Shown: positions 2,001-53,554 of the stretch, in pieces
How positions within the stretch are numbered: the stretch's first letter is position 1
Layout: every line of letters starts with the position of its first letter
Assembly: GCA_965248925.1 (NCBI GenBank)
Contig: CBDFLE010000006.1
Location: forward strand, 1,600,001 to 1,664,000
Source of the DNA: Candidatus Multivoradales bacterium
GTDB lineage: Bacteria; Acidobacteriota; Thermoanaerobaculia; Multivoradales; J023
DNA length: 64,000 nucleotides
Direction: 5' to 3'
Made by a program: the position numbers and the translations under genes
The notes under the pieces: model-generated
Databases searched by the model: none
Told to the model about the DNA's origin: nothing
What the model saw: the letters and a program-made list of their open reading frames with translations, nothing else

Positions 2001-2001
2001 A

Positions 2002-2548: not shown

Positions 2549-2674
2549 TCAGATTCGGGGTTCATTCTCGCCTCTTCTACCTAGAAGGCGTTCGAGCCGC
2601 CTTGGAAGTTACAACACGGTGCGGGCAAATTGACTGCCCTTTTCACCAATACGTCCCAGATGAGGTCTTCGGCA

Positions 2675-4110: not shown

Positions 4111-4130
4111 CCGCGGCGCGGCAGGGGCTC

Positions 4131-4158
4131 TTGACAGCCAGTAGATCCCAAATATAAT
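4131..4158 (+). promoter_or_regulatory. Consensus sigma70 promoter for aibABC
   Basis: TTGACA (4131-4136), 16 bp, TATAAT (4153-4158). Confidence 0.75.
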
Positions 4159-4279
4159 GCCGCTTGCTCGATACCAAACGAACGGTCGGTCTGTTTTCTA
4201 CTACCCGTCGAGGCCCTCCCATGAATCTACCCGGCAGAATTCAGCAGCAAAGTGCCGCGGCGAGCACCCGGAGATCGCC

Positions 4280-5847: not shown

Positions 5848-5869
5848 CCGAAACACAGGAGAGATTGCC

Positions 5870-24467: not shown

Positions 24468-27400
24468 ATGACCATCGCAGTGGTGGCCGAGAAGCCCTCC
24501 GTGGCGCGCGATATCGCCCGCGTCCTGGGAGCCAGCCAGAAGGGCAAGGGAATACTCTCTGGCTCCGGCTACGTCGTCACCTGGGCCATCGGGCACCTGG
24601 TGACCCTGCCCCAGCCGCACGAGATCGAAGCAGCCTGGAAGGGCTGGCGCCGCGACACCTTGCCGATGCTGCCCCAGCGCTGGCCGCTGCAAGTGAGCCA
24701 CCGCACTCGCGAGCAATTTCGCGCTGTCAAGAAAACGATCTGCGCGGCGGACGTCGAGCAGGTCATCTGCGCCACCGATGCAGGCCGTGAAGGCGAGCTG
24801 ATCTTCCGCTACATCTACGAAGCCGCCCGCTGCCGCAAGCCGGTGCAGCGGCTGTGGATTTCGTCATTGACCCCCACCGCTATCCGCCGAGGCTTCGCCG
24901 AGCTGCGCGCCGGCGATCAGTTTGACGGCTTGGCCGACGCCGCCCGCGGTCGCAGCCAGGCGGACTGGCTGGTAGGGATGAATCTGTCGCGGGCGATCAG
25001 TCTGGTGGCCGACGAAACCCTCTCGGTCGGTCGGGTGCAGACCCCCACCCTGGCGCTGCTGGTAGAGCGCGAGCTAGCCATCCGCAACTTTGTGCCCGAG
25101 GACTATCAGGAAGTGGTCGCCAGCTTTGCGCCCACCACCAACGCAGCCACTGCCAAAGACCCCGCAGCCGCTTATCAAGGCACCTGGTTCAACGGCGACA
25201 AGCCCGCCAGCGGCAAACCCTCAGCCAAGGCCAGCCGGCTGCCGGCCGATGGCCAGCAAGCACAGCGGATCGTCGACCGACTGGCTAACGGCGAAGCGAA
25301 AATCGCCAGCGTCGAGCGCAAGACCCGCCGCCGCCCAGCTCCCTTGCTCTACGACCTCACCGAGCTACAGCGGCACGCCAACCGGCTCTTCGGCTGGAGC
25401 GCCAAGAAGACCCTCGGTATCGCCCAGAGTCTCTACGAAAGCAAGAAGCTGATCAGCTACCCGCGCACCGACAGCCGCCATCTGAGTCGCGATGTCGCCG
25501 CCGAGCTACCGCGAATCGTCGCCGCCATCGCCGGCCCTTATGCTGAGCTGATGGCTCCTGGCAGCGGTGAGAAACCCCTCGGACGGCGTTTCGTCGACGA
25601 GGCTCGGGTCGCCGACCATCACGCCATCCTACCCACCGCGACCGCGGCAAAAAGCGCCCGGCCGAATGCCGACCAAGCCAAGCTCTACGACCTGATCTGC
25701 CGCCGCCTGCTCTGTGCCTGGCATGGACCGCAAGTCAGCGCCATCGTCGAAGTGGTCACCACCGTCGACAGCAGCCCAGAGACCGCCGAGCAGGGAGACG
25801 AAGTCGTCGATCACTTTTTTAGCAGCGGCACCAGCATTCTCGAGCAAGGCTGGACCGTGCTCGATATCAGAGTACGCAAGAAGATAAAGAAAGAACAGCC
25901 GGTTGTTCTGCCAGCTGAACTTGCTCAAGGTCTAGCGCGTCAGGTCAGCGCCGTCCAAGCCATCGAGAAAACCACTCGCCCGCCGCGCCGCCACACCGAC
26001 GCCACCCTGCTGACCGCGATGGAGACCGCTGGTCGCAGCCTCGACGACGAAGAACTCTCCGCGGCGATGAAAGAACGCGGCCTGGGCACCCCCGCCACCC
26101 GTGCCGAGACCCTCGAAACCTTGTTGCGCCGTGACTACGCCCAACGGCAGCAAAAAGCTCTCATCGCCACCGACAAAGGCATCGCCTTGATCGACCGGGT
26201 CCATCCGAAAGTCAAAAGCCCGGTGATGACCGGCGAATGGGAGGCCGAACTCAAACGGGTCGAGCGCGGCGAGCTTGAACTGAAAACCTTTCTGGCACGG
26301 ATCGAAACCTACGTCCGCGAAGTGGTGCGCAGCATGCTCGCCCACGGCCATCGCCCTCTCGGCCAAGCGACCGGCAGACCCCGACCCCAGGTGGTTGAGA
26401 CCAGCCACCAAGCAAAGAGCGAGGCTCGGAAGCCCGCAGGTGGGCCGGTGTTCACCGGCAGACAGCCCTTCCCTTCCAGGCATTTATCGCCGACGCCCAC
26501 CGCTGCATCCAGTAGGCCAGCGCCAGCCAACGAGATTCCGGCGCCGAGCCTCACCACCCAGCCATCGTCCCCCAGTGAACAGAGCTGGCGCCCCACTGCG
26601 GCCTTGGCCGCCGACCAACTAGGTCAGCTGCTCACTCAGCCATTTGGTTTTGACGGTTTCCGCCCCTACCAAGAGCCGGTCTGCCGCGCCGTCGCCAGCG
26701 GCCAAGACGTCCTCTTGGTGATGCCGACCGGCGCTGGTAAATCCCTCTGCTACCAGCTCCCCGGCCTGGCCCGCGCCGGCACTACGCTAGTGATCTCGCC
26801 GTTGATCGCGCTGATGGAAGATCAGGTGGCCAAGCTGCAAGCGGTGGGCATCCGCGCCGAGCGCATCCACTCCGGCCGCGGCCGGGGGGCTTCGCGCCAG
26901 GCCTGCCGGGACTACCTCGATGGCCGCTTGGATTTTCTCTTTATCGCTCCCGAACGACTCGGCGTGCGCGGCTTCCCCGAACTGCTGGCGCGGCGCAAGC
27001 CAAGCCTGGTGGCGGTCGACGAGGCGCATTGCATCTCGCAGTGGGGCCACGACTTCCGGCCCGACTATCGGCGCCTGGGTGAACGTCTGCCTGAGCTGCG
27101 GCCTGCGCCGGTGGTCGCCCTCACCGCCACCGCCACCCCAGTGGTGCAAGACGACATCGCCAAACAACTCGGCCTGAGCAGCGGCCAGCGATTCATCCAC
27201 GGTTTTCGCCGCACTAACATCGCCATCGAGAGCGTCGAGCTGCGTCCCTCGGAGCGGCGGGGGGCGGTTCGCCGTTTGCTCGCCAACGACTCCAACCGAC
27301 CGGCGATCGTCTACGCCCCGACCCGCAAAGAAGCCGAGGGGTTGGGAGCCGAGCTGGCCGAACTGCTGCCGGCCAGCGCCTACCACGCCGGCCTGAGCGC

Positions 27401-28619
27401 CAGCCACCGCGACCGCGTGCAGAGCGGCTTCCTGAGCGGCGAGCTGGAAGTGGTCGTCGCCACCATCGCCTTCGGCATGGGTATAGACAAAGCTAATGTG
27501 CGCACCGTCATCCACACCGCCTTGCCCGGCAGCCTGGAGTCTTACTATCAGGAAATCGGCCGCGCTGGCCGCGACGGTCTACCCTCCCGCGCCGCCCTAC
27601 TGTGGGGCTATAGCGACCGCCGCACGCACCAGTTCTTTTTTGATCGCGATTACCCCGAGGTGGCGGTTCTGCAAGGCTTACTCGGCGCCCTCGGCCAGGC
27701 CACCCTCGGCCGCGAGGCGCTGGCCGTCCGCAGCGGCCTCGGCGAGGACACCTTCGAGCGCGCCTTGGAGAAGTTGTGGATCCACGGCGGGGTCGAAATA
27801 ACTACCGAGGACAGCGTCCGGCGTAGCAACAGCACCCGTTCCGGCGCCAGCTGGCAGCTAGCCTACGAGGAGCAACGGCAGCAAAAACTGGCTCAATTGG
27901 GCCAGATCACCCGCTTCGCCCAAGCCCGCCAATGCCGCATGCTGGTGTTGGTGCGCCACTTTGGCGATCAAGAAGACAGCGGCGAGCGCTGTGACGTTTG
28001 TGACCACTGCGCGCCGGAGAACTGCCAGGCGCTGGCCTTTCGCCCGCCCACCGGCACCGAGGTCGGCGCGATGGAGCGCATCTTGGCCTCCCTGCGCCAG
28101 CGTGACAGCCAAGGAACAGCCCAGCTGTTTCGCGCCAGCTGTGAACCCCGAGGTCTCGACCGGCGCACTTTCGACACCCTGCTCGCCGGTCTGGTGCGAG
28201 CCGAGCTGGTGGCAGTCAGCGAAGAGTCCTTCAACAAGGACGGCCGCACCATCCACTTCCAACGCGCCTCCCTGACCGCCGACGGCTACCGCGATCTACC
28301 GATGCTCGGCGCACGGGTGCGGATGGTCGACGAGGTGCCGTCCAGCGGTCGATCCAAACGCCGCCAGCGACCCTCCAAGGCGGCGGCAGACCTCGCCGCC
28401 AAAGCTCCCACGCAGTTGGTGGCCAAGCTCGAGCACTGGCGCAAGGGCGAGTCGCGGCAGCGCGGTGTGCCAGCTTTCAGAATCCTCCGCCAAGCGACCC
28501 TGCGAGCCATTGCCGCCGCGCGGCCTAGCGATCAGCAACAACTGGGGGCGGTGCGTGGCGTCGGTCCCGCCTTGCTGCAACGCTATGGCGATGAGCTGCT
28601 GCGCTTGCTGCGCCCATGA
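24468..28619 (+). CDS. DNA topoisomerase III - RecQ helicase - HRDC fusion
   Basis: [45 protein letters not shown]; Pro-rich linker; [53 protein letters not shown], Zn motif [10 protein letters not shown]-terminal HRDC; one 1383-aa ORF. Confidence 0.95.
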
Positions 28620-39471: not shown

Positions 39472-40449
39472 ATGAGCTTTTTCGCCTTCCTTTTTGGATT
39501 GCTCGTCTATGTCGCCCTGGGCATTGGAGCGCGAGGTTTCTTCACCGTGCGGCCCAATGAACGGGCAGTAAAAACCTCTTTTGGCCGCGCCGAAAGACTT
39601 GAGGGAGCACCTAGCGGGGCTCCTGATCTCAGCGCTGAAGAGCAGGACCGCTACCGCTATCCGCAGCTCCGCGTCATCCCACCGGGCGGTCCCTATTTGA
39701 AGATGCCCTGGCAGCAGGTACATAAAGTGTCGGTGGCCACCCAAGCGGTCGATCTGGTGTGGGATCCGACCAAATCGCAGAACACCATCGAATCGGTGAC
39801 CAAGGACAACCTGACCACCGGCGTCAACGGCCAGCTGCGCTACCGGGTGAGCGAGAGCAACCTCTATCCCTACCTCTTTGGCGTCACCAGCCCGCTGGAA
39901 CATGTCATGGGCTTCTTCGTCTCGGTGCTGCGCGAAAGAATCTCCAATTTCGTCGACCCAAAAGGCGCCAGCCTGATCAGCGACAGCGAACTCGACGGCG
40001 ATGAGCAGCCGGCGGCGGAGCTTTCAGAAGGGGTATCGATCAACGATCTACGCAAGAACCTGCCATTGCTCAATCAGTACATGGAACAGCAATGTCATTC
40101 GACGGCCGGACGCTATGGCATCGAGCTAGACGCCGCCCTGGTGACCGAGATCGATCCGCCGTCTGAGGTCGACCACGCCCTATCGGCGATCAACTCGACC
40201 CGCAATCAGGTGGCGGCGGACATCTCCACTGCCCGCGCCGACGCCGAGCAGCAGATCACCCTGAGTGAGCGCGCCGTCGAGATCGCCCAAAACAACGCCG
40301 AGGCCGAGGTCGCGCCGCTGCGCGAGTTAGCTACCATCTTGTCGAAGATTAAAGATCAGGGGGGCTCGGCAGCGTTGGGAGCCTACCTGCGCAACATGCG
40401 CGTGCCCCTCTTCGAACGTGCCAACCGCGTCGTCATTACCAGCGACTGA
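39472..40449 (+). CDS. SPFH/band-7 protein
   Basis: N-terminal TM, FFTVRPNERAVKTSFG, TKDN, YGIELD..VTEIDPP, coiled-coil tail. Confidence 0.85.
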   Translation: MSFFAFLFGLLVYVALGIGARGFFTVRPNERAVKTSFGRAERLEGAPSGAPDLSAEEQDRYRYPQLRVIPPGGPYLKMPWQQVHKVSVATQAVDLVWDPTKSQNTIESVTKDNLTTGVNGQLRYRVSESNLYPYLFGVTSPLEHVMGFFVSVLRERISNFVDPKGASLISDSELDGDEQPAAELSEGVSINDLRKNLPLLNQYMEQQCHSTAGRYGIELDAALVTEIDPPSEVDHALSAINSTRNQVAADISTARADAEQQITLSERAVEIAQNNAEAEVAPLRELATILSKIKDQGGSAALGAYLRNMRVPLFERANRVVITSD

Positions 40450-40462
40450 GGGGACAATAACC

Positions 40463-41359
40463 ATGCCAATCTTCCCCGTAATATCATTCCTTTTCGGCCT
40501 GCTCTTGATCCCCATCCTGCTGCGCTTGGCGCGGCTGTTCGGCCTCTACACCATCGTCGGCGAATGCGAATCACAGGTCTTCACCCTCTTCGGCAAAGTT
40601 CTGGGAGTGCTCGACGAGCCCGGCCTGAGCTTTCCCGTCGCCCGCTTCGGCCCAAAAGCGTTCTTGATCCCCTTCTTCGGCCGCCGCCAAGTGGTATCGA
40701 CCGCGCTGCGCCAGCACTACCTGCGCAGCCAGATGGTCAATTCCGAAGAAGGCACGCCGATGGGCGTCGGCATCTGGTACGAGATGAGCGTCAACGACCC
40801 GACTTCCTATCTGTTCACCAACGCCAACCCAGAAGGATCCCTCCAAGCCAACGTCACCAGCTCGACCATCTCGACCCTGTCCAATCTGCAGATGGAAGAG
40901 ATGCTTGAGAATCGCCACAGTTTGAGCCGCACGGTGCGCGCGGCGGTCTCCCCCTTGAGCGAAAAGTGGGGCTATCAGCTGGGCTCGGTTTACATCCGCA
41001 AAGTCGCCTTCACCGACCGCTCGATGGTCGAGAACATCACCGAAAAAGTAGTCAAACGCCTGGTCCAGGTAACCAGCGCGATGAAACAAGACGGAGACAA
41101 CCGGGTCGGCCTGATCCAGAGTGAAACCGCCAAGAAAGTCTCGCAAAGACTCGCCGAAGCCGCCGCCGCCCGCCCGGCGGTGGTCGGCGCAACCTTGAAC
41201 GAAATCGGCCGCCAGGACACCGAGATTCTCAGCTCAGTGATCGAAGTGATGGAAACCGACAAGCTGCTGGCCTCGGGCGCACGGGTTGATGTTCTACCCA
41301 AAGATGCCACCGTGCTGATGCAGCTGGGAGAAGGGGCACCGCCGCTGATCGGGAGCTAA
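40463..41359 (+). CDS. Second SPFH/band-7 protein
   Basis: TM, LFGKVLGVLDEPGL, WGYQLGSVYIRKV. Confidence 0.8.
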   Translation: MPIFPVISFLFGLLLIPILLRLARLFGLYTIVGECESQVFTLFGKVLGVLDEPGLSFPVARFGPKAFLIPFFGRRQVVSTALRQHYLRSQMVNSEEGTPMGVGIWYEMSVNDPTSYLFTNANPEGSLQANVTSSTISTLSNLQMEEMLENRHSLSRTVRAAVSPLSEKWGYQLGSVYIRKVAFTDRSMVENITEKVVKRLVQVTSAMKQDGDNRVGLIQSETAKKVSQRLAEAAAARPAVVGATLNEIGRQDTEILSSVIEVMETDKLLASGARVDVLPKDATVLMQLGEGAPPLIGS

Positions 41360-41764
41360 ACCAAGACGGGCGCCCAGCCGTGCGCCCCTACGCCTCCTCG
41401 GCGACCTCGCTGGGTTCCTCGTTCCGCAGAAATAGTGCGGCATGGATTTCGTGTCAAGAAGACTCGTCCGTTTGCGCGGCCTTGACCCCACCCGGCAGAC
41501 TCCGGCAATGGCTCACCAGGCAGAATCCACCAACGCCGACTTGTTGAAGGTCGATCGGATTGAGTTCGCCGTGGTGCCCTCGCAGGACAGCGGCGACAAT
41601 GTTATTACTGGCGACAGAAGAAGAAAATTAGTTCTTCAGAAAGAGTCTGTCGACGGCGACTAGCAAGGGACAGTCCCTGGCATTCACCAGATCGAGCGGT
41701 CGCGTTCTTGCGCCGCACCCAGTTCTTGGTTGATAGTAAACTTATTTCGTGAGGGTCCGATCCA

Positions 41765-44643
41765 GTGCAATATCGCCCATCCAAGCCACAAGCTCCCCTG
41801 TCCGAATTCGATCGTTACTGCCTGACCTTGCGTCTGGCGGCGCCGATAGTCCTGCCCTTTGAGCATGGCGGCGTGCTGCGTGGCTTGCTGTCGCGGGCGC
41901 TGAGCCAGCACCAACTGCCGGACGGACTGATCCTCTTTGCCGCCGAGTCGGGGCGGGTTCACTTCCGCGCCGGCGATCGCTATCGCTGGGTGGTCACTCT
42001 GGTGGGCGAGGCCCGTGGCCAGGCGGAGACACTGCTGGCGGGTATCGCCGCGGTGGGTGGCCGGGTCGACAAGGGGCCGGCACCGGTCTTGGGTGGTAAT
42101 TTCGTGCTCGAGGCCACCGACTTGCTGCCCGCCGTCGATCTCGACGCCGAGTTGGCCCAGCTCGGCGAGCGAGACGAGATCGTGCTGCTGCTGCGCTCGC
42201 CCCTCTGCCTGCCGCGGCCAAAGACTCCCCAGGGCGCACGAGGCGGCATCTTCGACCAACACTGCTTCCCGGCCGCGGCTTTCTTGGATCGACTTTGGCG
42301 CCGCCGCTTCTTCCTCCAGCACAGCCGCTATCCGCGGCCCGAAGAGCGGTCGACCCGGGCCGCGGTAGGAGAGGGTGCGACGGCCCGACCCCACCACTTG
42401 CTGGCGGTTGATCTGCCGGTTCGGGGCACCGGTGAGCACAAGCCTTCTTACAACCTTGCAGGGGTGCGCGGCCAAGTGGTCTTCGGCGGGCTGAGCGAGG
42501 AAGAGCGCTCAGGCCTGGTCGCCGGGATGTTCCTGCACCTCGGCAAGAGCGTTAACTTTGGCTTTGGCCGCTACACCCTCGAGGGCACCCTCGACCATGG
42601 CGACAAGCATTTTCTACCCAGCACCTCGCTGCTGGCTCACGCCGCCGACTCGGAGGTGCTCGAGGACGCCGTCGCCCATCTGCGCCAGAACCTGAAAACC
42701 AAGCATCAGCTGCCGGGCGATGAGGATGAGCCGATCCCCGGCCGGCTGATCGTCGATCTCTCGCGGCGGCTGCTCGACGGCAGCTACCAGCCCGGCCTGC
42801 TCAGCGGCTTCGTGCTGCCCAAGAAGGACGGCGGCGTGCGCCCTCTGGCGGTCCCCAGCGTGCGCGACCGGGTGGCGCAGCGGGCGGCGATCGAGGTCCT
42901 GGCACCGATCATCGATGGTTTGCTCGAGGATTCCTCCTTCGGCTACCGCCGGGGGTTTTCGCGGCAGGGCGCGGCGCGGGCCATAGAACGGGCCTATGCC
43001 GAGGGCTACCGCTATGTCCTCGACGCGGACATCCACGCCTTCTTCGATCAGGTCGATTGGTCGCTGCTCTTCGCCAAGCTCGAAGCGCTCTTCCCCCAGG
43101 AGCCGCTGGTGGAGCTGCTGCGGCAGTGGATCCAAGCGCCGGTGATCTTCGAGGGTCGGCGCATTCGCCGGCAACGGGGCCTGCCCCAAGGCAGCCCCAT
43201 CTCCCCTCTGCTGGCCAATCTCTATCTTGACCAGCTCGACGAGGCGTTGATCGACCAGGGCTTCAGGCTGGTGCGTTTTGCCGACGATTTCGTCGTCTTG
43301 ACCAAGGATCTCGACCGGGCACGAGCCGCCAAGCTCGCCACCGAGCGGGTGCTGCGAGAGCTGCGCCTGTCGCTCAACCAAGACGAGACCGCCATTCGTG
43401 CCATCGACGACGGCTTCAGCTACCTCGGCTATCTCTTCGTCCGCTCGATGGTGATCGAGAAACGCTCATCGTCGAGTGCCGACGGTTCGGCAGCTGAAGT
43501 GTCCCTCGACGCTGACGACGTGCCGGCTGGATCGTGGCTTGCCGGGGTGTCCCTGCGACGAATCGAGGAGCTGCTCTCCGGGCGTCGCGGGCCCAAGTCG
43601 GTGGCCGGGTTCGAACGAGTTCCTCTGGCCACCGGCGCCGCCCTCGACGCCGGCCGTTGGCCCCTCTATGTGGTGGGGCATGACACCCGCTTGTTCTTGC
43701 GGCGACGAACCGTGGTGCTGAAGCGCCCGGAACAGGAGCCCGCCGAGCTACCCATCGAGGCGCTTTCCCACGTCGTCTTTTGGGGCCGGGTGCGGGCGAC
43801 GGTACCCGTCTTGCGCGGCCTCGCACGGGCCGGTGTGCCGGCCTACTTCTGCCAGGTCGACGGCACCCTCGAAGCGGTCTTTGGTCCCTATGAAGAAAAG
43901 TGGCCGAATTGGCTGGCGCAGGCCCGCGCCGCCGACAACCCGGAGCTCTGCCTGCGTTTTGCCATGGCCACCATCGAAGCGCGGTTGCGCAACTTGCGGT
44001 CATGGCGGTGCGCTTTGGCTGGGGCGGCGGTTCGGCGCTCGCCGCTCAGCTGCGCCAGCTGGCGCGGGAAACTGTCAACAAGCAAAGCCTCGACTCGGTC
44101 CGTGGCCTTGAGGGTCGCGGCATGGCTTTGGTATTTGGAGCATTGGCGGATGCGCTCGACTCCGAGTGGGGTTTCACCGGTCGTCACCGCCGACCGCCGC
44201 CGGATCCGGTCAACGCGATGCTCTCCTTCGGCTACAGCTTGCTTTACAACCACACTGCCACGGCCTTGACCGAGGCTGGCCTCAGTCCGCGGATCGGCTT
44301 GATGCACGAACCCCGCGGCGCCCATCTCGCCTTGGCATCCGATCTGATGGAAGAAGTCCGCCACCTGGTCGAGTCGTTGGTCTGGACATTGATCCGCCGC
44401 CGGCAGGTCAAGCCGACAGATTTTCGCCCGTCGGCAGATGGCTACTACCCGGCGCTGCTGACCCAGGAGGCGCGGCGGATGTTTCTCGACGCCTTCGAGC
44501 GCCGGATGCTGACCCAGCTGACCCCGGAAAAGGGCGAAGAACCGATCAGCTACCGCCAGCTGCTGGTGCGCCAAGCCAGGCAGGTCAGGGAGCTGGTGAG
44601 CGGGCGTCAAGACAGCTATCATCCTCTGGTGATCCGTGGCTAG
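41765..44643 (+). CDS. cas1: Cas6-RT-Cas1 fusion, frameshifted at about 43995
   Basis: Cas6 G-rich loop LHLGKSVNFGFGRY; RT PKKDGGVRPLAVP, DADIHAFFD, GLPQGSPISPLLANLYL, RFADD; Cas1 N-terminus in ORF 41765, with catalytic part (GLEG, PPPDPVNAMLSFGY, GLMH, LASDLMEE) in the frame of ORF 43900-44643. Confidence 0.92.
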
Positions 44644-44974
44644 GAGGCAGAATCTTGGCTGCCGCGGGCGAGTTGTCAAGGGTAGAGCAAGGCGTCTGGC
44701 TAACGCTACGGTGTTTCCGGGGATCTCGAGGGAGAATCTGCCAAACTGGCACACGTAAGGCTTAAAGCTCTTGAAACAAACAACTTAGATGGGTCGAGGG
44801 GAGAAAGATCAGACCGAGATCCCCTGAGAGACGATAAAATCAATGATATCAATGGGATACAAGACTTCGGAAAACACGAAACCGGCACAATCGAGGGTCC
44901 AGCGCCGCATTTTGACGAGATCCCCTGAGAGCCGCCTGCAAGTCCTTTGCTTTCAAGGGCCTGGAAAGGGTAGA
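44644..44974 (+). promoter_or_regulatory. CRISPR leader
   Basis: AT-richer non-coding stretch between the cas1 stop and the first, non-degenerate repeat. Confidence 0.75.
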
Positions 44975-46839
44975 GTGGGAATCGACCTAGCCGCTCAAGG
45001 CATTGCGACCATAAATATTCGGACAGGATACACCAAGACATTTTGTGAGTGTGGGAATCGACCTAGCCGCTCAAGGCATTGCGACTTTCTGCCCCCTCGT
45101 GTCGTTATAGTCGGCGATGCCCACAGTGGGAATCGACCTAGCCGCTCAAGGCATTGCGACTTTCAACGCACGAACCATCTGATCAATGACCCAATCGTGG
45201 GAATCGACCTAGCCGCTCAAGGCATTGCGACTTCGCAAACGTTGTAGAAAAAAGTATGAGCAAGCTCGTGTGGGAATCGACCTAGCCGCTCAAGGCATTG
45301 CGACCTTTCATCCGAAAAGTTCTCAGTGTTCAGTAGGACGTCGCGTGGGAATCGACCTAGCCGCTCAAGGCATTGCGACTTCATTAAAATTTGGGTCAGT
45401 CGCTGTTCTGTACCAGTGGGAATCGACCTAGCCGCTCAAGGCACTGCGACTTTCACCAAGCGTGACGAGCCCGACAACCATGAGAACAAGTGGGAATCGA
45501 CCTAGCCGCTCAAGGCATTGCGACTTTCTAGAATTGGTTGAGAAAACTCTAGTGCAACTCTAAGGTGGGAATCGACCTAGCCGCTCAAGGCATTGCGACA
45601 CACGATACCGTACATTACCAGAAACCACGACAGTTTGTCGGTGGGAATCGACCTAGCCGCTCAAGGCATTGCGACCTTTCTGAGACCTTGCGAAGATTAG
45701 AGAAGAGCAAAGTAGTGGGAATCGACCTAGCCGCTCAAGGCATTGCGACTTTCTGCAATAAATTGACTAATCTCCAGAGCGTCATGCAAGTGGGAATCGA
45801 CCTAGCCGCTCAAGGCATTGCGACTTCGCATCTTCCGAAACTCGCCTGGAAAGTCATGCTGCTTGTGGGAATCGACCTAGCCGCTCAAGGCATTGCGACT
45901 TCAAATATGCTGGATGGACATGTTGCCTCACAAAGAAGCTGTGGGAATCGACCTAGCCGCTCAAGGCATTGCGACTTTGAGAAACGTGGTTTTCCCATTT
46001 TTATGGAGTACGAGTGGGAATCGACCTAGCCGCTCAAGGCATTGCGACTTTGAGAAGTAGTTCAGCAAGGCACAGTAGCCGCTGTGGGAATCGACCTAGC
46101 CGCTCAAGGCATTGCGACCAAACGATAGAAGAAGGTGTGCCCGAGTTCATGAGCAACCGGTGGGAATCGACCTAGCCGCTCAAGGCATTGCGACTTCTCC
46201 ATCCACAAACCTAGCAAAGGGTGTGCGGTCGAAATGTGGGAATCGACCTAGCCGCTCAAGGCATTGCGACTTCGTAGTTGGCGCATACCAGAACCACACT
46301 GCGTTGAAGTGGGAATCGACCTAGCCGCTCAAGGCATTGCGACTTTCCATCAGGGCGTTGTTGTTACTCTGAGTCATAAGTGGGAATCGACCTAGCCGCT
46401 CAAGGCATTGCGACTTTCCGATAGTCATCATCCCGCACCAGTCCAGTTTCATCGTGGGAATCGACCTAGCCGCTCAAGGCATTGCGACTTCTATAGACTT
46501 TGTTCCACCCATGTTCGTTTCTCTCGAGTGGGAATCGACCTAGCCGCTCAAGGCATTGCGACTTTAGCAACGTAGCATCCTTGATCTTGTCGAGCGGCAG
46601 AGTGGGAATCGACCTAGCCGCTCAAGGCATTGCGACCTCAAGGTCTTCGTTGGTGACCCCTGCAATGCTCGACTCTTGTGGGAATCGACCTAGCCGCTCA
46701 AGGCATTGCGACTTCCCCTCCATATCCACGAACGACCTGTTCTTGCCGTAAGTGGGAATCGACCTAGCCGCTCAAGGCATTGCGTCACAGAGTTCGTTGG
46801 CATCGCCGTGTGAGAATCGACCTAGCCGCTCAAGGCATT
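44975..46839 (+). CRISPR. CRISPR array: 26 repeats (25 full, 1 truncated), 25 spacers, type III-like
   Basis: 35-bp repeat GTGGGAATCGACCTAGCCGCTCAAGGCATTGCGAC; GCC/GGC stem followed by the 8-nt handle ATTGCGAC; spacers 35-41 bp, last 23 bp; variants at repeats 7, 25 and 26 put the trailer on the right. Confidence 0.98.
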
Positions 46840-48163
46840 GGATCTTCGTCTCCCTGTGTGGGTAAATAGCGCCGTGGCCGACAAATGGATATGCTTGCTG
46901 GATGCGAGACAAAGACCTGTAGGCGAAGATCTTGGGCGTCGAATCGCCGTGGCGAGTCACAGAAGTAGACCTGGCCTTGGATGAAGGTGAGGTTTTGGTG
47001 CACTTGGTCAACGGCGAGAAGCGCCCACCCTGTCCTGAATGCGGCAAGCCGTGCAGCGACTACGACACCCGTTCTCGTCGCTGGCGGCACCTGGATACCT
47101 GCCAGTACCGGACGGTGCTTTTGGCCCAAGTGCCTCGGATCGAGTGCCCGGATCATGGTGTGCTCCAGGTCCGTGTCCCGTGGAGTGAGCCCGGCTCTCG
47201 CTTTACGGCGCTGTTCGAGGCGCTGGTGATCGATTGGCTCCAGGAAGCAAGCGTCTCGGCCGTCGCTCGGCTGGTGGGCCTGGACTGGGGCGAAGTGGAT
47301 CGAATTATGGCCCGATCCGTGGCCAGGGGTCTGGCTCTGCGAGAGCGCAAGCTCCCTCAGCGTCTCGGTGTGGATGAGACCTCGTTCCAGAAGCGCCACG
47401 AATACGTGACCGTGGTCTGTGACTAGCAGAGAGGTGTCGTTGTGCATGTAGCCGACGGTCGGGGCCGAGACTGCCTCGACGATTTCTACAAGGGATTCGA
47501 AGAGAAAGAAAGGAAAGCTGTCGAGTCTGTGTCTATGGACATGTGGCCAGCGTACATCGGCTCGACCGAGCAGTACATTCCCGGTGCCGAGACGAAGATC
47601 GCCTTCGACAAGTTCCATGTAGCCCAGCACCTGTCCAAAGCCGTGGACAAGATTCGCCGACAGGAGAACAAGATCCTCGTCAGCCAAGGTGATGAGTTCC
47701 TGAAAGGCAGCAAGTACCTCTGGCTCCAGAACCCTGACAACATGAGCGATGAGCGCTGGGCGGGCTTTGAGGAACTGCGGGAAAGTAGCCTCAAGACCGC
47801 CCGCGCATGGGCGATCAAAGAACTCGCCATGAGTCTGTGGTACTACGCATACCGGGGCAGTGCTCGCAAAGCCTGGAACAAGTGGTACTCCTGGGCGATC
47901 CGTTCCCAGCTCGAGCCCATCAAGAAGGTTGCGAGGATGGTCAAACGCCACCTGGAGGGTATCCTCACCGCCATCGTGCGCGGCGTCACCAATGCTCGCT
48001 CCGAAGGCATCAACGCGAAGATCCAATGGGTCAAGTACACAGCCAGGGGATGCCGCAACCGGGAGCGCTTCCGCAACGCGATCTACTTCCATCTTGGTGG
48101 TCTTGATCTTTACCCTGAAAGCATCAGGCGGTGATTGCTACCCACACAAAGTATTGTAGCGCC
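46840..48163 (+). mobile_element. ISL3-family insertion sequence
   Basis: Imperfect terminal IRs GGATCTTCGTCTCCCTGTGTGGGTA and revcomp GGCGCTACAATACTTTGTGTGGGTA; no target-site duplication visible. Confidence 0.85.
46902..48134 (+). pseudogene. ISL3 transposase with two in-frame TAG stops
   Basis: MRDKDL*AKILGVESPW..CPECG..RRWRHLD..LGVDETSF..VVCD*..SMDMW..FDKFHV..TNARSEGIN; TAG at 46920 and 47424. Confidence 0.9.
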
Positions 48164-48170
48164 GTCTGAT

Positions 48171-48551
48171 TCAATCCGCTGGCAACTGGTCAAGAGGAAC
48201 TCTCTTAGACAAAAGCTCGCCCGCCTCTATGGACCCTTTCTTGGTGAGATTGAGCCAGCAAATATCGCCGAGATCCGGCCCCTTGGGCAAGGCCAGCCAC
48301 TCACTTTCAATCTGCTGAAGGGCTTGGTCAACAGGAATCTTCCAGGCTGTGAATCCTGTCTCTGTAACCATCCCGACATCCATCAAGTCTCGCCCGAGTA
48401 GCTCCCGAAGAACCCGGAGTGAGAGATCACGAACTTCGGCTTCACTCGTTGCACCACCGACCGAGCGTGCTACCCAAGCAACTTCCGTAGCATCGACCCA
48501 ATCGTCCAAACCACGTCGCAGAAGCTCTTCGACAAGATTGTGCAGGCTCAT
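48171..48551 (-). CDS. Putative cognate immunity protein of the RHS toxin
   Basis: Small acidic lower-GC ORF coupled to the RHS stop by an ATGA overlap. Confidence 0.75.
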   Translation of the reverse strand: MSLHNLVEELLRRGLDDWVDATEVAWVARSVGGATSEAEVRDLSLRVLRELLGRDLMDVGMVTETGFTAWKIPVDQALQQIESEWLALPKGPDLGDICWLNLTKKGSIEAGELLSKRVPLDQLPAD

Positions 48552-51500
48552 TGCTGTACATGCACCTTGCGCCTGGCTCCACTAGGCAGCTTGATGTCGA
48601 TGGTTGGCCCTCCAGACTTCGAGCCAGTGCGCAAGCCTACCGTCGTACCGTCGGGCAGTTTGACTAGCTTACCTGGATACCTTGTGGCGTCGACTGGTGT
48701 GCCGCCGCGGCTTAAGCGACCAAATATGCCCCCTAAATCATCAGCCGACTCGACTACTTTGACGCTAGAACTGCTCCCAGCTCGCAAGCCGGAAAGAGCG
48801 TCGCCAACAGCCTCCGCTCCCCTCCTTGCCTGTGCCGCTTGACGCAGCTTTTTGATTCTCTTCGCTCTCTTGACAGCTTTTGTGAGCTTCACCCCTTTGC
48901 TAACAACCTTGAAAAGCCCCACACCTGTGGCACCTGTCGCCGCCCCAGTGAGAAAAGCTGTGCCTACGCCCGTGGTTAGATCATCGCCCGCTATCGCGTT
49001 AATCGCAACTTGAAAACCGACATCTACGACTCCACCAAGAAACGCGGTTACCAGAAAGGCAAGTCTTCCGTCCGGGTCTACCTGGTTGATTGGACTGTTG
49101 CTGACGTAAGAGAAACGATTCCAACTCTGGGGTGAGGACCGGCTGCCCAGAGATGGATCGACACTCAAGAACCGCCCCACCACCGGATTGCAATGCCGAG
49201 CATGCATGTAGTCCAGCTCGCTCCTCACCCCGGTCCCGGTCTTGTCCCGCTCATGACCGGTAAACTTCAGCAGAATCTCATCTGCCCCCGCGCTGGTCGC
49301 CTCCTGACCAAAGGGGTAGTAGTTGTGCAACGCCACCTGCTGACCGCCACGAGTGATCTGCCGGGGCGTACCCAAATGATCAAGATGCAGATGCGAGGTC
49401 ATCTCGCCGCCGCTACCATCGGGCTCGATGGTGGCCAGCGGCTGGCCACCTCGATGGACGTAATCCCGGCTCCAGCTGAAAGCGCCGCCAGCCGGCTGAT
49501 CGTAGATTCGCAGGACTTCGTTCCCGAGCCCACGCAGGGTCCAGGTGAGACTGGCGGGCTGGGTGGTGCAAGTGCTGGTGGCGCCGGGGCCGAAGCAGTC
49601 GAAGGTGAGGATCCGCTCGTCGCTGGCGTTGTAGATGAAGACCCGCGCTTGATCGGTGTTTGAGCGCAGGTGCTTCATCATGTTGGCGCCATCGAAGGCG
49701 TAGTCGAAGCTCTCGCTGCCGAGGGTGATGTCGGTCAGATTGCCGGCAGCGTCGTACTGAGCGCCTGAGAGGCCGAGGCGGTTGGTGGTGGTGCTGGGGT
49801 TGAGGTTGAGAGCCACGAAACCGGGTGTCGACAACTGCTGGATGTTGCCGAAATTGTCATAAGTCGCCGTCTGGGTGAACCGGGTGGCACCAACGGAGGT
49901 CTGGCCGGAGCGTAATCGGCCGAGGCGGTCATAACGGTAGTCCAGGTTGCCGATGGCGGAGATATTGCCGGCTCCGTCGTAGGCGAAAATGCCGCTGCTC
50001 CAGCCCGCGGAGGTGGTCAGCTGATGCGGCCTGGCGAGGCCGTTGGAGCTGCTGACTTCCTGGGTGTCAACCACGCCATCGCCGTGGGTGAGCTGATGCA
50101 GCATGCCACCGCTCTGGTAGGTGAGGTTGTTGGCGAAGCCGGGCACGGACCTCAGCATACCCTTCTCGTAGTTGAAATTCACCGTGCGCTGCGGATCGTT
50201 GGTGGCGCAGCCGCCGTCGGCGTGTTGGCAGCTGGGGTAGTCGAGTTGCGACAAATTGCCCTGGGTGTCATAGACGAAACCGGTGGTGAAGGCGTAGTTG
50301 CCGGCGAAGAATTGGTAGCGGGTCTGCTTCTCCGACATCAGCCCCTGACGACCGGTGTAGCGGAAGCTCTCGGAGAGCTTGACGTCGAGGAAGCCGGGCT
50401 CGGGGGCCAGGGGATTCTGGATGTCGACCCAGTTGTGGCGCACGGTCTGCACCAGCTTGCCGGCCCGGTGGTCGCTGCCAGAGTTGGCGCGGGCGTAGCG
50501 GAACTGCTTCTGCAGACGCGGGGTGCTCCCCGCGCCATTGCTCGATTCGAGGACTCTGATCAGTCGGCCGGCGGCGTCGAAATCGAAGCTCAGATCGAAG
50601 GCGGTGCTGCCGATCAGATCTTTGGAGGTGGCGTTGCCGCCGGCGTCATAGCGGTAATCGATGCGGCCATTGCCCGAGGGGCCGATCTCGGGATGGGTCT
50701 CGGAGAGTAGGAAGCCGCGACCGTCATAGTCGAACAAGCGGGTCTGGCCGCAGGTCGAGCCGGCGAGGTTCTGGCACACTTTGGTCAGTCTGCCACCATC
50801 GTCATATGAGTAGCGAGTCAGCAGACCGCCACCGCCACAGCTCCCTGACCAGGGGGCGGAACTGCCCTCGCAGACCTCGGCCAGACGGCCCTGGCCGTCC
50901 ATGATCTCGGTGACGTAGGTGTCTTGCTGGCCACTGGTCAGCTGCACTTTGAAGCGCCGGGTCTGCACCCGGTCGCCTTGGTAGGTGAAGAAGGTCGCCG
51001 GCTGTTCTGGCGGCTTGACCCGGCCGGGGCGGCCGAAGCGATCGTAGGCGATGTAGGTCGTGCGCCGGCTCTCGCCGGCCGCGGAGGCGGTGGTCCACAC
51101 CGACTCGTCCGTCTTCCAGTGACGGGGGTTCCAGGTTGTGTAGCGATGCCAGAGCTCGGTCTGGCCAGCGTTGGCGACGGGGATGCGCACGGTCTGTTGC
51201 AGCCGCCGGCCGAGGCCGTCGTAGCGGTGCTCGCGGAAGCTCATCAGATCGGTGCCGCTGCAGGAGGTCTGGAAGGGCTGGCACTGTTGCTCGGTGAGCT
51301 TGGGCGCAAGACTGGGGTTGGCGGTGGTGGGCAGGGTGTAGGTCCACTGGGTCCAGCCCAGCTCGGCCGGGCGCTGGCCGGTCAAGCGGCCCAAGCGATC
51401 GTAAGTGAAGCTGGTGCCCAGGCCCGCCGCGTCGCGGCTGGTGGCCACCAGGCCGGTGTCTGAGTCGATGTCGTAGTCGGCCAGGGTGAGTATCGCGGTG

Positions 51501-53554
51501 CCGGTGCAGTCCACCGCCGTCGACTTGCGCAGGCTGCCGCTGGCGTAGACGTGGTCGGTGCGGTAGGTCGGGCCGGACAAGCCGAGGCTGCACAAGGAGC
51601 CGGTGCCGAGGTTCTGGGTGTCGCCGCCATAAATCCGCTGGCGGGTGACGAAGCCGTTGGTCGAAGTGAGGAGGCTCACCACATCGCGGCTCTGACGGCT
51701 GCTGCCAGCCAGCTGGCGGCGGCGTTCGAGAAAGCCGGTGGTGCTACTGAAGCAGAACTCGGCCTTTTCTGTGGTTCCGCCTTCGCTCACCGACTGCTCG
51801 TCCCAGGTCTCCAGGATCCAGCGTGCGTTGTGGCTTGGCAGCACGAAATCGGTTGCCGGATCGATCGAGCTGTCGTCGGGGTTGGCGATGATGTAGGTGC
51901 CGCTGTTGGCGTTGTAGGTGGTGCTGCTGGTGCGCACGTCGGCGGCGCCGAAGCTGCCGCCGGTGGTCATGGTGCGGAAGTGGCCCAGGCCATCGAAGTC
52001 CGAGAAGGTGACTTCGCGGAACTTGCCGCCGTCGTCGTGGAAGGTCTCCTTGCGGTAGCGCAAGCGGTGGGCCTTCTCGTTGTAGTTGCCGGCGTCGCGG
52101 CCATCGCTGTCGAACTCAACGAAGATCGAGCGGAGCTTGGTTCCGCCAGCGTTGAAGAGTTCTTGGGAAAGGAAGGGGCCGGCTTCTGAGAAGCTGCCAC
52201 TGATGGGATCGCAGTAGGTGTAGGGCAGGCCGTAGGACCAGCGATTGTTGGCGCCGACGGTGGAGAAATAGCTCACCGTTTCGAAGCCCAGCGGATCAGT
52301 CACTTTCATCGAGTGGAAGCAGGGGTGGCCCAGCGGATCGCCGGGGGCTTGCGGGTTTGCGGTGTCGTAGCTGTAGTTCCAGGTGGCGTAGGGGGTGGTG
52401 TCGCCGTCGTCGAGGAAGAGATGTTTGCTCTTGACTCCCCGCGCCACCGTGCCCCAGTCAGGAGCATGGAAGAGGTCGGCCAGCTGGGTTTGGAAGGGGA
52501 AGAGCTGGTAGTCGTAGCCGTAGGCGCCACCGGTGGGCAGGCGCAGTTTCGACAGGCCACCGGAGAGCAGGTTGTCGACGGTCAGGTAGTCCATCTCGTA
52601 GAACGAACCGTCGGGCAACACCACCCGGTCGAGCACCTGGGTGGTGAGGGTGTGCTCGGCTATCGGCACGCAGCCGGGACGGAAGCCGAACTGCCGTTCG
52701 AGGGTCTCGGTGCGGTACTGAAAGAGGAAGGTCGAGTTGCTTTGGCTGCCGAAGGCTTCGAGCCTCACCGTAGCGACTCTGCCACCGACAAAATCCACCG
52801 TGTGAGTGCGCCCTTGGCTGTCGGTCAATGTCCAGTCGCCATCGTTGGCATAGCGCACATTGATCCAATTGCCGAAGCGATCCTCCATCCGCGTCAGGCG
52901 CCAAATGTCCCTTACGGTAGCGTAGTTATGAAATTCATGCAGCTCGCCGCCAGGAAATTCTATGGTGAAGCAGCTCTGATCGACAAACGTACCAGCGGGC
53001 AGCTCGCACACTCCCGGATTGCGTCGGCGGAGGCGCAAATAGGTACTGTCGTTGGTGAACCAGGTGCTGGGCTGCGGGGTCGCTGGAAAGCCACCGGGGT
53101 GTAGCTCGGTGTAAAACCTGTGCTCGCCGCCGCTTGGATCGACGTAAATCTCAGGCGTTGTCGTCGGACTGTTACGCGGCGCGATCAGCTCTCCGAGGCT
53201 GACTCGCCAGCCGAAGCCTGCCCGGGTCTGGAGATCCTGGATCGGCAGACTGTAGGTGCGCAGCATGAACGGTGGGTTGATGTCCTGGCATTGGTGGTTC
53301 TCGTCGTACTCCCAGCCGCCAGAGCTGTACGAGGCGGTCAAGCTGAAGCTCAGGGACGGGCCGACGGGGTAGGTGATTCCGATCGGCAGAGATACGGTAA
53401 GGCTGCCGTTGAAAAGGTTGATTTGATCCAGGTCGCTGATCTGGTAGGCGGTGTCGGCGGTCACTCCGCGCTGGTGGCTCGGGGGGAGTTGCGCGGTCAG
53501 CGGCAGGGCGATGCAGAGGCCGAGAAGGATGAGGGTGAGAGGTCTAATTCGCAT
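48548..53554 (-). CDS. Sec-secreted RHS/YD-repeat polymorphic toxin
   Basis: Signal peptide, many YD repeats, core HLDHLGTPR..YYPFG..KFTGHERD..DYMHAR..GRFLSVDP..NSPINQVDPDG, then a hydrophobic helix and a ~90-aa lower-GC tip. Confidence 0.93.
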   Translation of the reverse strand: MRIRPLTLILLGLCIALPLTAQLPPSHQRGVTADTAYQISDLDQINLFNGSLTVSLPIGITYPVGPSLSFSLTASYSSGGWEYDENHQCQDINPPFMLRTYSLPIQDLQTRAGFGWRVSLGELIAPRNSPTTTPEIYVDPSGGEHRFYTELHPGGFPATPQPSTWFTNDSTYLRLRRRNPGVCELPAGTFVDQSCFTIEFPGGELHEFHNYATVRDIWRLTRMEDRFGNWINVRYANDGDWTLTDSQGRTHTVDFVGGRVATVRLEAFGSQSNSTFLFQYRTETLERQFGFRPGCVPIAEHTLTTQVLDRVVLPDGSFYEMDYLTVDNLLSGGLSKLRLPTGGAYGYDYQLFPFQTQLADLFHAPDWGTVARGVKSKHLFLDDGDTTPYATWNYSYDTANPQAPGDPLGHPCFHSMKVTDPLGFETVSYFSTVGANNRWSYGLPYTYCDPISGSFSEAGPFLSQELFNAGGTKLRSIFVEFDSDGRDAGNYNEKAHRLRYRKETFHDDGGKFREVTFSDFDGLGHFRTMTTGGSFGAADVRTSSTTYNANSGTYIIANPDDSSIDPATDFVLPSHNARWILETWDEQSVSEGGTTEKAEFCFSSTTGFLERRRQLAGSSRQSRDVVSLLTSTNGFVTRQRIYGGDTQNLGTGSLCSLGLSGPTYRTDHVYASGSLRKSTAVDCTGTAILTLADYDIDSDTGLVATSRDAAGLGTSFTYDRLGRLTGQRPAELGWTQWTYTLPTTANPSLAPKLTEQQCQPFQTSCSGTDLMSFREHRYDGLGRRLQQTVRIPVANAGQTELWHRYTTWNPRHWKTDESVWTTASAAGESRRTTYIAYDRFGRPGRVKPPEQPATFFTYQGDRVQTRRFKVQLTSGQQDTYVTEIMDGQGRLAEVCEGSSAPWSGSCGGGGLLTRYSYDDGGRLTKVCQNLAGSTCGQTRLFDYDGRGFLLSETHPEIGPSGNGRIDYRYDAGGNATSKDLIGSTAFDLSFDFDAAGRLIRVLESSNGAGSTPRLQKQFRYARANSGSDHRAGKLVQTVRHNWVDIQNPLAPEPGFLDVKLSESFRYTGRQGLMSEKQTRYQFFAGNYAFTTGFVYDTQGNLSQLDYPSCQHADGGCATNDPQRTVNFNYEKGMLRSVPGFANNLTYQSGGMLHQLTHGDGVVDTQEVSSSNGLARPHQLTTSAGWSSGIFAYDGAGNISAIGNLDYRYDRLGRLRSGQTSVGATRFTQTATYDNFGNIQQLSTPGFVALNLNPSTTTNRLGLSGAQYDAAGNLTDITLGSESFDYAFDGANMMKHLRSNTDQARVFIYNASDERILTFDCFGPGATSTCTTQPASLTWTLRGLGNEVLRIYDQPAGGAFSWSRDYVHRGGQPLATIEPDGSGGEMTSHLHLDHLGTPRQITRGGQQVALHNYYPFGQEATSAGADEILLKFTGHERDKTGTGVRSELDYMHARHCNPVVGRFLSVDPSLGSRSSPQSWNRFSYVSNSPINQVDPDGRLAFLVTAFLGGVVDVGFQVAINAIAGDDLTTGVGTAFLTGAATGATGVGLFKVVSKGVKLTKAVKRAKRIKKLRQAAQARRGAEAVGDALSGLRAGSSSSVKVVESADDLGGIFGRLSRGGTPVDATRYPGKLVKLPDGTTVGLRTGSKSGGPTIDIKLPSGARRKVHVQQ

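Follow-up and report, generated by a model that had tools for sequence, protein, structure and literature searches.

A Cas6-RT-Cas1 fusion gene with a frameshifted Cas1 domain, a CRISPR array and no neighbouring cas2 in a Multivoradales genome

The fusion gene and the break in its Cas1 domain

The window analysed here is a 64,000-nucleotide stretch of contig CBDFLE010000006.1 (hereafter C6; assembly GCA_965248925.1) of Candidatus Multivoradales bacterium, corresponding to C6:1600001-1664000. As the original prediction described, a gene of the Cas6-RT-Cas1 type is followed in the window by a leader and an array, with SPFH genes and an insertion sequence in the flanks. The leader measures 331 nt and the array 26 repeats; two SPFH/Band_7 genes lie to the left and an ISL3-family element to the right. 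The features, in window coordinates, are as follows.

39472-40449 and 40418-41359: two SPFH/Band_7 genes of the left flank
41765-44269, + strand: Cas6-RT-Cas1 fusion ORF, 834 aa, covering Cas6, RT (FADD) and, of Cas1, the N-terminal domain alone
41765-42604, + strand: Cas6 (crRNA maturase) domain, residues 1-280, assigned by AlphaFold model and Foldseek, with a weak Pfam PF10040 match
42818-43432, + strand: group II intron-like RT domain with FADD, residues 352-556 (RVT_1, TIGR04416)
43664-43993, + strand: Cas1 N-terminal domain, residues 634-743, the final in-frame portion of the fusion
43991-43996, + strand: frameshift site, one base absent
43993-44643, + strand: catalytic C-terminal domain of Cas1, an open frame shifted by -1 from that of the fusion ORF
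44644-44974, + strand: leader, 331 nt, without cas2 or a remnant of it
44975-46844, + strand: CRISPR array, 26 repeats of 35 nt and 25 spacers, 8-nt tag ATTGCGAC
46856-48148, + strand: decayed ISL3-family insertion sequence adjoining the trailer end of the array

Cas6, RT and Cas1 domains had been placed together in one gene. The Cas6 domain, the RT domain and the N-terminus of Cas1 do share one frame, but the catalytic half of Cas1 lies in another, and the frameshift at 43993/43994 had been missed. The RT domain matched RVT_1 at residues 352-556 (Pfam, E 9.4e-34) and TIGR04416 (E 7.7e-66), and its FADD active site reads intact in the translation. The Pfam match to CRISPR_Cas6 (PF10040) was weak (E 0.0011; 20.1 bits, under the 25-bit cut-off). 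The Cas6 fold is nevertheless predicted to be intact: the AlphaFold model of residues 1-280 reached a pLDDT of 85.7 and a pTM of 0.82, and its top Foldseek match was the Marinomonas Cas6 domain (6dd5; E 6.7e-16, TMq 0.67, 22% identity), followed by 7kft/7kfu and then by stand-alone Cas6 proteins.

Within the fusion ORF, the Cas_Cas1 match (residues 634-746, Pfam) covered only positions 1-114 of the 283 in the profile. Positions 132-282 were matched in a separate frame at 43900-44643 (E 1.6e-48), which also matched TIGR00287 (E 1.3e-46), and no single reading frame holds a complete Cas1 integrase domain. The shift of the catalytic half into the -1 frame stems from the lack of one base at 43993/43994: position 43993 is both the last base of an Asn codon and the first of the -1-frame Leu codon. 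Past the break, the fusion ORF continues out of frame to a stop at 44269, which gives it a 91-residue tail. In an alignment to 20 homologues, homology of the N-terminal part ends at residue 743 and no residues are lost at the junction. If one base is restored, the two frames join seamlessly, with the N-terminal part running to column 798 and the C-terminal part from column 799. Given that the sequence is homologous throughout, the fusion is a member of the Cas6-RT-Cas1 family by descent, though a broken one.

The fusion keeps the family-invariant residue at 146 of 151 columns, including all 34 in the out-of-frame Cas1 half, and from this conservation the Cas1 lesion appears to be recent. Two otherwise invariant Trp residues of the Cas6 domain are altered; the total of broken invariants is within the family range, since in a leave-one-out test family members broke 0-17 invariant columns (median 2). 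The closest listed proteins were P0005 (58%) and P0006 (55%). Among the matches listed, 108 of the 119 other homologues are 914-1008 aa long, vs. 834 aa here, and none of the 119 is split inside Cas1. A scan of genome contigs with the fusion as query returned one weak RT-only match and nothing else.

Logan contigs from four public runs cover 43400-45000 and show neither differences nor gaps relative to the assembly, although all four runs come from a single sample, possibly the one from which the assembly itself was made. Their agreement excludes an assembler slip and leaves room for a read error that is systematic or for an intact allele in the minority. Programmed frameshifting and transcriptional slippage were also considered and were rejected, as reading of the site revealed neither a slippery heptamer nor a homopolymer.

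The missing cas2 and the prospects for spacer acquisition

The window had been described as devoid of cas2, cas10 and csm/cmr genes, and family searches and tblastn with the genome's own proteins agree with that description. In the whole-genome family search, no PF09827 match fell in the window and all matches were elsewhere; whole-genome family searches and tblastn likewise found no Cas10 or RAMP gene in C6:1600001-1664000. With the genome's own Cas2 and effector proteins as queries, tblastn gave nothing credible in the window, and with Cas2 proteins it detected neither cas2 nor a remnant in 44644-44974 (E<=10). Among the metagenome loci of relatives, cas2 is downstream of the fusion in 36 of the 37 that could be assessed, and it directly follows the fusion in the nearest genomic relative (G006) and in both in-genome paralogues.

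The genome itself holds four cas2 genes, all outside the window, and three complete CRISPR-Cas systems: a III-B locus (cmr1-6 and cas6), a III-D-like locus (Csx10, Csx7 and a Cas10-like protein) and an I-C locus. The Cas10/RAMP effector genes are located at C6:0.29 Mb and C6:4.13 Mb, and the III-D-like locus carries two further Cas6-RT-Cas1+Cas2 modules (C6:284-312 kb). Each of the other type III loci comes with adaptation genes and arrays of its own, and none of the III-B, III-D-like and I-C loci has the same repeat as the 26-repeat array. With <=6 mismatches allowed, the repeat occurs nowhere else in the genome, and the genome-wide search that had been suggested for cas2, effectors and same-repeat arrays thus yielded no second array of this kind. 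An ordinary split system had been expected to reveal itself by a full type III operon elsewhere that had both cas2 and this repeat; type III operons with cas2 exist in this genome, but the repeat is confined to this array.

The original prediction had also raised the possibility of a Cas2-independent RNA recorder. Such a recorder is unsupported, because its integrase half is not translated in frame. Cas1 function could in principle be rescued if the C-terminal domain were translated from an internal start: its frame is already open at 43900 and contains an ATG at 44002, and the break separates the two Cas1 domains. Ahead of that ATG, however, no purine-rich ribosome-binding sequence can be seen, and the 119 listed homologues offer no precedent for such a split. 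Moreover, the integrase complex of Thiomicrospira is described as a heterohexamer around a Cas2 dimer, an architecture that needs Cas2 (PMC8102632). Either version, the recorder or the functional split Cas1, is therefore very improbable.

Another explanation is that the module still acquires spacers in trans; the frameshift would then be an artefact of the reads or the consensus, or a minority allele, and either the III-D or the III-B locus would provide Cas2. Everything but the missing base looks to be under selection, including the fully conserved catalytic-half invariants, four cas2 genes are at hand in the genome, and RT-Cas1 modules have been proposed as possibly functioning in trans (Silas et al., 2017, PMC5513706). 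Against this explanation are the agreement of the four-run contigs with the assembly at a site that is not a homopolymer, the solved complex centred on a Cas2 dimer (PMC8102632) and the near-constant presence of cas2 beside the fusions of relatives. The paralogous fusions are only 42% identical to this one, so compatibility with their Cas2 is uncertain. We regard active acquisition in trans as improbable. The earlier suggestion that the module serves a distant locus in trans is thus divided: adaptation in trans is unlikely, while Cas6 processing and use of crRNAs in trans with the III-B and III-D-like loci would be plausible.

The ISL3-family element (DDE_Tnp_ISL3, E 2.4e-61) had been put forward as the agent of a rearrangement that left a relic. 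Its transposase frame (46932-48134) contains an in-frame stop, and partial copies about 89% identical to it occur elsewhere on C6. Terminal inverted repeats of about 10 bp can be seen by eye, although the repeat tool gave no inverted pair, and the 8-bp flanks of the element are unlike each other. The element does not occupy the usual position of cas2 or effector genes. An old insertion at the trailer end does not explain the clean lack of cas2 between cas1 and the leader, and IS-driven loss of cas2 or effectors was rejected. Of that earlier claim, the relic is the part best supported, by the frameshift and the missing cas2, and the insertion sequence is not clearly its cause. SPFH genes as defence partners were likewise without support; among 10 neighbouring ORFs, PADLOC reported a DpdF-like helicase 13 kb upstream and nothing else.

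The array and the possible use of its spacers

The leader and array lie downstream of the fusion in the same orientation, and the repeats carry a type III-style 8-nt tag. About 60 leader-proximal nucleotides are conserved with the leaders of relatives, and a 15-nt motif occurs twice in the leader (44816-44830 and 44917-44931). Of the 26 repeats, 23 share one sequence, another carries one change and the final two are degenerate; 24 spacers are 35-41 nt long and the last is 23 nt. The repeats of relatives end in ATTGCGAC, ATTGAAAC or ATTGAGAC, and the tag ATTGCGAC is found in relatives beside III-B-like effectors (L038) as well as III-D-like effectors (L032 and L036). Within the genome, the tags of the III-B array (AUUAAGAC, 2.5 Mb away) and the III-D-like array (AUUGAGAC, 1.3 Mb away) differ from it by 2 and 1 nt, respectively.

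The spacers are AT-rich and foreign-looking, and they have the junction signature typical of arrays of the Cas6-RT-Cas1 family. No spacer had a genome match longer than 18 nt, and searches of phage and plasmid collections gave no match at E<=0.05. A search of 299 further genomes of the order, with 1-2 candidates scored per genome, found neither the array repeat nor a protospacer match. A simple scan of 41300-47000 detected 0 sigma-70 promoter-like sites against 1.1 expected, an uninformative outcome, the repeat folded no better than its shuffles (z-scores -0.25, 0.52 and -0.98), and no Rfam family reached its gathering score across the whole window. For 43400-45000 no RNA runs were listed, the matches being DNA-type contigs of one sample.

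It should be noted, as a separate observation, that the array has a one-sided TT bias at the tag-side spacer junction. Set against the 3' dA tailing reported in the literature, this bias is the sole, and indirect, hint of spacer acquisition from RNA. The count in the comparison of spacer ends omitted six arrays with wrongly bounded repeats (the genome's own III-D a and b and III-B arrays, and L055, L057 and L063).

The loss of one base that breaks the integrase half, together with the missing cas2, makes it most likely that the locus is a recently disabled leftover, the stored guides of which may serve both complete type III systems. We lean toward viewing it as an orphan type III-style adaptation and processing module that has recently become unable to write spacers, with an array that is a frozen memory usable in trans. 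The spacers would have been written while the fusion gene was still intact. The array would still be transcribed, and the Cas6 domain, which is encoded upstream of the break, would cut the repeats to yield crRNAs bearing AUUGCGAC as their 5' tag. Cas6 RNA processing was reported to be unaffected by Cas1 and RT mutations (Wang et al., 2021, PMC8102632). The crRNAs might then be loaded in trans by the III-D-like complex, the III-B complex or both, and the locus would act as a frozen memory bank. Counting against this explanation are the lack of a promoter-like site in the scan, the tag differences, the two Trp changes and the lack of a protospacer for any spacer.

The main rival is a fully inert relic, which would have lost cas2, effectors and now Cas1, and the array of which would be unprocessed, unused and too young to have decayed. 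Such a relic is consistent with two independent lesions (the absence of cas2 and the Cas1 frameshift), a window without effector genes, a decayed insertion sequence at the trailer end, the lack of a promoter-like site and a repeat shared with no other array, in a genome whose other type III loci own their adaptation genes and arrays. The intact Cas6-RT reading frame, leader and 23 of 26 repeats, the well-predicted Cas6 fold and the near-identical tags in two resident type III systems all argue against it, and we consider complete inertness unlikely, though a serious alternative. Distinctly less probable is a live memory bank, in which RNA-derived, dA-tailed prespacers were integrated with a borrowed Cas2. 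The TT junction signature would then put the sense strand of the source RNA opposite the crRNA, the Cas2 would have come from a paralogous module with the low identity given above, and after the Cas1 frameshift the Cas6-RT stump would be a dedicated maturase for two type III effector complexes in trans.

The locus would offer a natural case of Cas6 processing separated from integration, which is useful for the question of whether orphan type III arrays are retained as frozen memory. The result is mainly a correction, in that what had the look of an unbroken RNA recorder lacking Cas2 is an adaptation gene that has only recently been broken, and it is a reminder that high-GC ORFs may run past a frameshift and hide it. 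The T-rich one-sided spacer junction in arrays of the Cas6-RT-Cas1 family is a side observation that could matter more: if protospacers confirm that the junction bases are non-coded, it could serve as a marker by which RT-mediated acquisition is recognised in the sequences of natural arrays.

Comparison with known systems

Like the locus described here, that of Marinomonas mediterranea MMB-1 (6dd5) has a type III-associated RT adaptation module. The MMB-1 system is active in RNA spacer acquisition, and its locus includes cas2, with III-B effector genes alongside. MMB-1 integrates spacers in either orientation, whereas the junction bias in the present array is one-sided.

The Cas6-RT-Cas1/Cas2 of Thiomicrospira (7kft/7kfu, PMC8102632) has the same Cas6-RT-Cas1 domain order. 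Residues 251-746 of the fusion are colinear with residues 284-772 of its chain 7kft_D (E 7.6e-63), and residues 791-975 of that chain are colinear with the out-of-frame Cas1 part (E 2.2e-24). In contrast to the Thiomicrospira enzyme, which as described is built round a Cas2 dimer, the Cas1 catalytic domain here is out of frame and cas2 is absent.

The lack of nearby effectors is not unusual, given that about half of RT-cas loci are reported to be without effector genes, often with the array kept (Silas et al., 2017, PMC5513706), and that the effector complex was partial or unknown in 41 of 110 representative RT-CRISPR records (Toro et al., 2017, PMC5541045). Those effector-less loci are, as presented in these reports, autonomous units with cas1 and cas2, and differ from the present locus, in which cas1 is broken and cas2 is missing. 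The genome's own III-D-like modules have the same fusion architecture, a similar leader-proximal motif and a similar tag (ATTGAGAC), but their fusions are 42-43% identical to this one, their repeat is another, their frame is intact and their cas2 is present.

The fusion gene and its broken Cas1 domain

The window corresponds to C6:1600001-1664000 in a genome of 8.0 Mb in six contigs. The Cas6-RT-Cas1 gene and the genes beyond its array are as follows.

41765-44269, + strand: fusion open reading frame, 834 aa
Residues 352-556: reverse transcriptase domain (RVT_1, E 9.4e-34; group II intron RT model TIGR04416, E 7.7e-66)
Residues 634-746: Cas1 match, covering profile positions 1-114 of 283 only
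46856-48148: ISL3-family element abutting the trailer end of the array, the end far from the leader (transposase domain, E 2.4e-61)
48548-53554, - strand: RHS-repeat protein gene, 1668 aa, directly after the ISL3 element

The Cas6, RT and Cas1 domains named in the original prediction are all real. The RT and Cas1 domains were identified by profile matches, and the translated RT domain contains FADD. For Cas6, the PF10040 match was sub-threshold (E 0.0011), and the assignment comes from residues 1-280 modelled with AlphaFold on 30 homologues (pLDDT 85.7, pTM 0.82). The top solved match of this model was the Cas6 domain of Marinomonas Cas6-RT-Cas1 (6dd5; E 6.7e-16, TMq 0.67), with further matches to the Thiomicrospira Cas6-RT-Cas1-Cas2 complex (7kft/7kfu) and many stand-alone Cas6 proteins. 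Among the matches listed, 108 of 119 other proteins were 914-1008 aa long, and the closest homologues were 58% (949 aa) and 55% (937 aa) identical to the fusion; several of the homologues listed, 533-734 aa long, were Cas6-RT proteins lacking Cas1.

Profile positions 132-282, the remainder of Cas1 (E 1.6e-48), are encoded in a different frame, at 43900-44643. Twenty homologues were aligned and the two pieces added to them as fragments; the first piece stopped at column 798 and the second began at column 799, where relatives read ...ARLRN-LA..AVRFGW.... In the DNA, the Asn codon ends and the -1 frame Leu codon starts at the same position, 43993; thus, a single base has been lost. The site shows neither a slippery heptamer nor a homopolymer. 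The in-frame product is limited to Cas6, RT and the N-terminal domain of Cas1.

We noticed that 146 of 151 family-invariant columns are kept, including all 34 in the out-of-frame catalytic half, and that, in a leave-one-out test, the number of such columns broken by ordinary members of the family ranged from 0 to 17 (median 2). In all other respects the sequence looks like that of a sound gene. Because the invariant columns are kept and the breaks are in line with those of ordinary family members, the lesion is, judged by this conservation, recent. Contigs in Logan from four public runs, all of a single sample, cover 43400-45000 without difference or gap, which argues against an assembler slip; the sample is possibly the one that was assembled, and a minority intact allele may still exist. 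That the module is still active, the frameshift being an artefact or a minority allele and Cas2 being supplied in trans, is an improbable reading.

The missing cas2 and the usual gene order

The Cas1 frame stops at 44643 and the first repeat starts at 44975, with 331 nt between. Neither cas2 nor a remnant of it was found in these 331 nt, three Cas2 proteins used as tblastn queries (E<=10) hit nothing but noise in other parts of the window, and a genome search with PF09827 returned four cas2 matches, none of them in the window. Neither a catalytic Cas1 domain nor Cas2 is available at this locus.

Among relatives, cas2 is the rule. A scan of metagenome contigs yielded 80 loci, 40 of them with a Cas1 C-terminal match, and three with <=110 nt of downstream sequence were set aside. 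Downstream cas2 on the same strand was found in 36 of the 37 assessable loci, starting <=250 nt from the Cas1 match in 34 of the 36, at 750 nt in L084 and at 2.6 kb, past an array, in L029; in the remaining locus, L033, it was absent within its 251 nt of downstream sequence. In G006, which among genomes is the nearest relative (48% identical), cas2 lies immediately 3' of the fusion. L029 (metagenome contig, 1831-6630), the nearest metagenomic relative (56-59% identical), is decayed too, its order being a Cas6-RT open frame, a Cas1 C-terminus remnant of ~56 residues, a 26-repeat array and cas2 past the array.

Type III effector matches were found upstream in 7 of 10 loci with >=5.6 kb of upstream sequence. 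Given that published surveys report effector genes absent from about half of RT-cas loci (PMC5513706) and a partial or unknown effector complex in 41 of 110 representative RT-CRISPR records (PMC5541045), missing interference genes are ordinary here. The unusual parts of the locus are the absent cas2 and the broken cas1.

Two SPFH genes lie upstream of the fusion. The ISL3 transposase frame (46932-48134, + strand) contains one in-frame stop, partial ISL3 copies elsewhere on C6 are ~89% identical and lack about 200 bp that the window element has, and the 8 bp flanking the element are unlike on its two sides. A copy of the 3' region of the RHS-repeat gene, 81% identical, lies at C6:3519489-3520008. 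A helicase of 1383 aa at 24468-28619 (+ strand) shows a nearly end-to-end match to the PADLOC DpdF model (1639 bits).

The array and its spacer junctions

Over its final ~60 nt, next to the first repeat, the leader is conserved with those of relatives and of an in-genome paralogue, and this conservation fixes how the array is oriented. Within the leader, a 15-nt motif is present in two copies (44816-44830 and 44917-44931, 101 nt apart), the proximal one inside the block that relatives' leaders share. The array comprises 26 repeats, each 35 nt long: 23 have the same sequence, one differs by a single change and the final two are degenerate. Of the 25 spacers, 24 measure 35-41 nt and the last measures 23 nt. 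The 8-nt tag (the end of the repeat) is ATTGCGAC, as predicted. A search of 299 other genomes of the order did not recover the repeat.

The window spacers have a G+C content of 46%, compared to about 62% for the genome, and none matched its own genome; this low G+C and lack of self match suggest a foreign origin. At the tag-side start of 24 spacers (45010-46809), T occupies position 1 in 18 and position 2 in 21, compared to a T frequency of 0.25 in spacer interiors (binomial p 3e-16); starts are often TTC or TTT, and the opposite end shows a weak A excess only. With six arrays with wrongly bounded repeats excluded, the same one-sided bias was found in 8 of 12 other well-bounded family arrays (p<0.01), a ninth gave p 0.011 and three were without it.

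Arrays sharing the TT bias: G000:C6:310331-311857 (the same genome); L022, L029, L035, L036, L041, L047 and L051 (other loci)

A control I-C array of the same genome had some T excess at position 1 (43/107) and none at position 2 (26/107). RT-Cas1/Cas2 has been reported to put short 3' dA-rich tails on RNA protospacers, with non-coded A residues at the junctions of in-vivo spacers and, for the Marinomonas enzyme, integration in both orientations (Mohr et al., bioRxiv 10.1101/2023.09.01.555893). The one-sided TT may be a footprint of 3' dA tailing by RT-Cas1, fixed in one orientation. It would fit, as a hypothesis only, dA-tailed RNA-derived spacers kept so that the crRNA is antisense to its source RNA; an integrase with a sequence preference would account for the bias just as well.

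Resident systems and the likely state of the module

The genome holds four cas2 genes and six Cas1 matches, distributed over three other CRISPR-Cas systems.

Contig C5: type I-C-like locus with three large arrays
C6:4.118-4.134 Mb: complete III-B locus with cas6, cmr1-6, a CARF protein, a SAVED-CHAT protein and a 25-repeat array
C6:0.284-0.312 Mb: III-D-like locus with Csx10, Csx7-type RAMPs, a weak Cas10-like protein and three arrays

In the III-B locus, cas2, RT and cas1 are separate genes; its array (L007, C6:4118531-4119297) has an apparent internal duplication of a five-spacer block, judged only by the repeating order of 4-nt spacer starts. The III-D-like locus (L005 and L006, C6:284000-312000) carries two Cas6-RT-Cas1+Cas2 modules, 99.6% identical to each other and 21.6 kb apart, and its effector genes are adjoined by a CBASS-like nucleotide cyclase and a SAVED-CHAT protein. 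Because these paralogues are only 42-43% identical to the window fusion over its full length, the latter is, by sequence comparison, a separate lineage and not a recent copy. The original prediction had considered an ordinary split system with cas2 and the same repeat at another type III locus: cas2 genes and type III loci with cas2 are indeed present, and the window repeat is absent elsewhere in the genome at <=6 mismatches.

With moderate confidence, we favor a broken module that gains no new spacers, whose Cas6 still matures the array and whose crRNAs may serve the resident III-D-like and III-B complexes. Spacer writing would no longer be possible, because catalytic Cas1 and Cas2 are unavailable at the locus and the solved Thiomicrospira enzyme is a heterohexamer around a central Cas2 dimer (PMC8102632). 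A recorder that is Cas2-independent or uses a split Cas1 we consider highly improbable. Since Cas6 processing by the Thiomicrospira enzyme was unaffected by Cas1 and RT mutations (PMC8102632), the Cas6 domain could probably still mature the array transcript. That the locus is instead a wholly inert relic, in keeping with its broken cas1 and absent cas2, seems rather unlikely. In gene orientation the tags of the III-D-like locus (ATTGAGAC) and the III-B locus (ATTAAGAC) differ from that of the window array by 1 and 2 nt, respectively, and in relatives the window tag adjoins III-B-like and also III-D-like effector genes. The crRNAs of the array could possibly be used in trans by the two resident complexes. 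The original prediction is partly confirmed in its observation and partly supported in its interpretation, and the locus is a damaged member of an already known kind.
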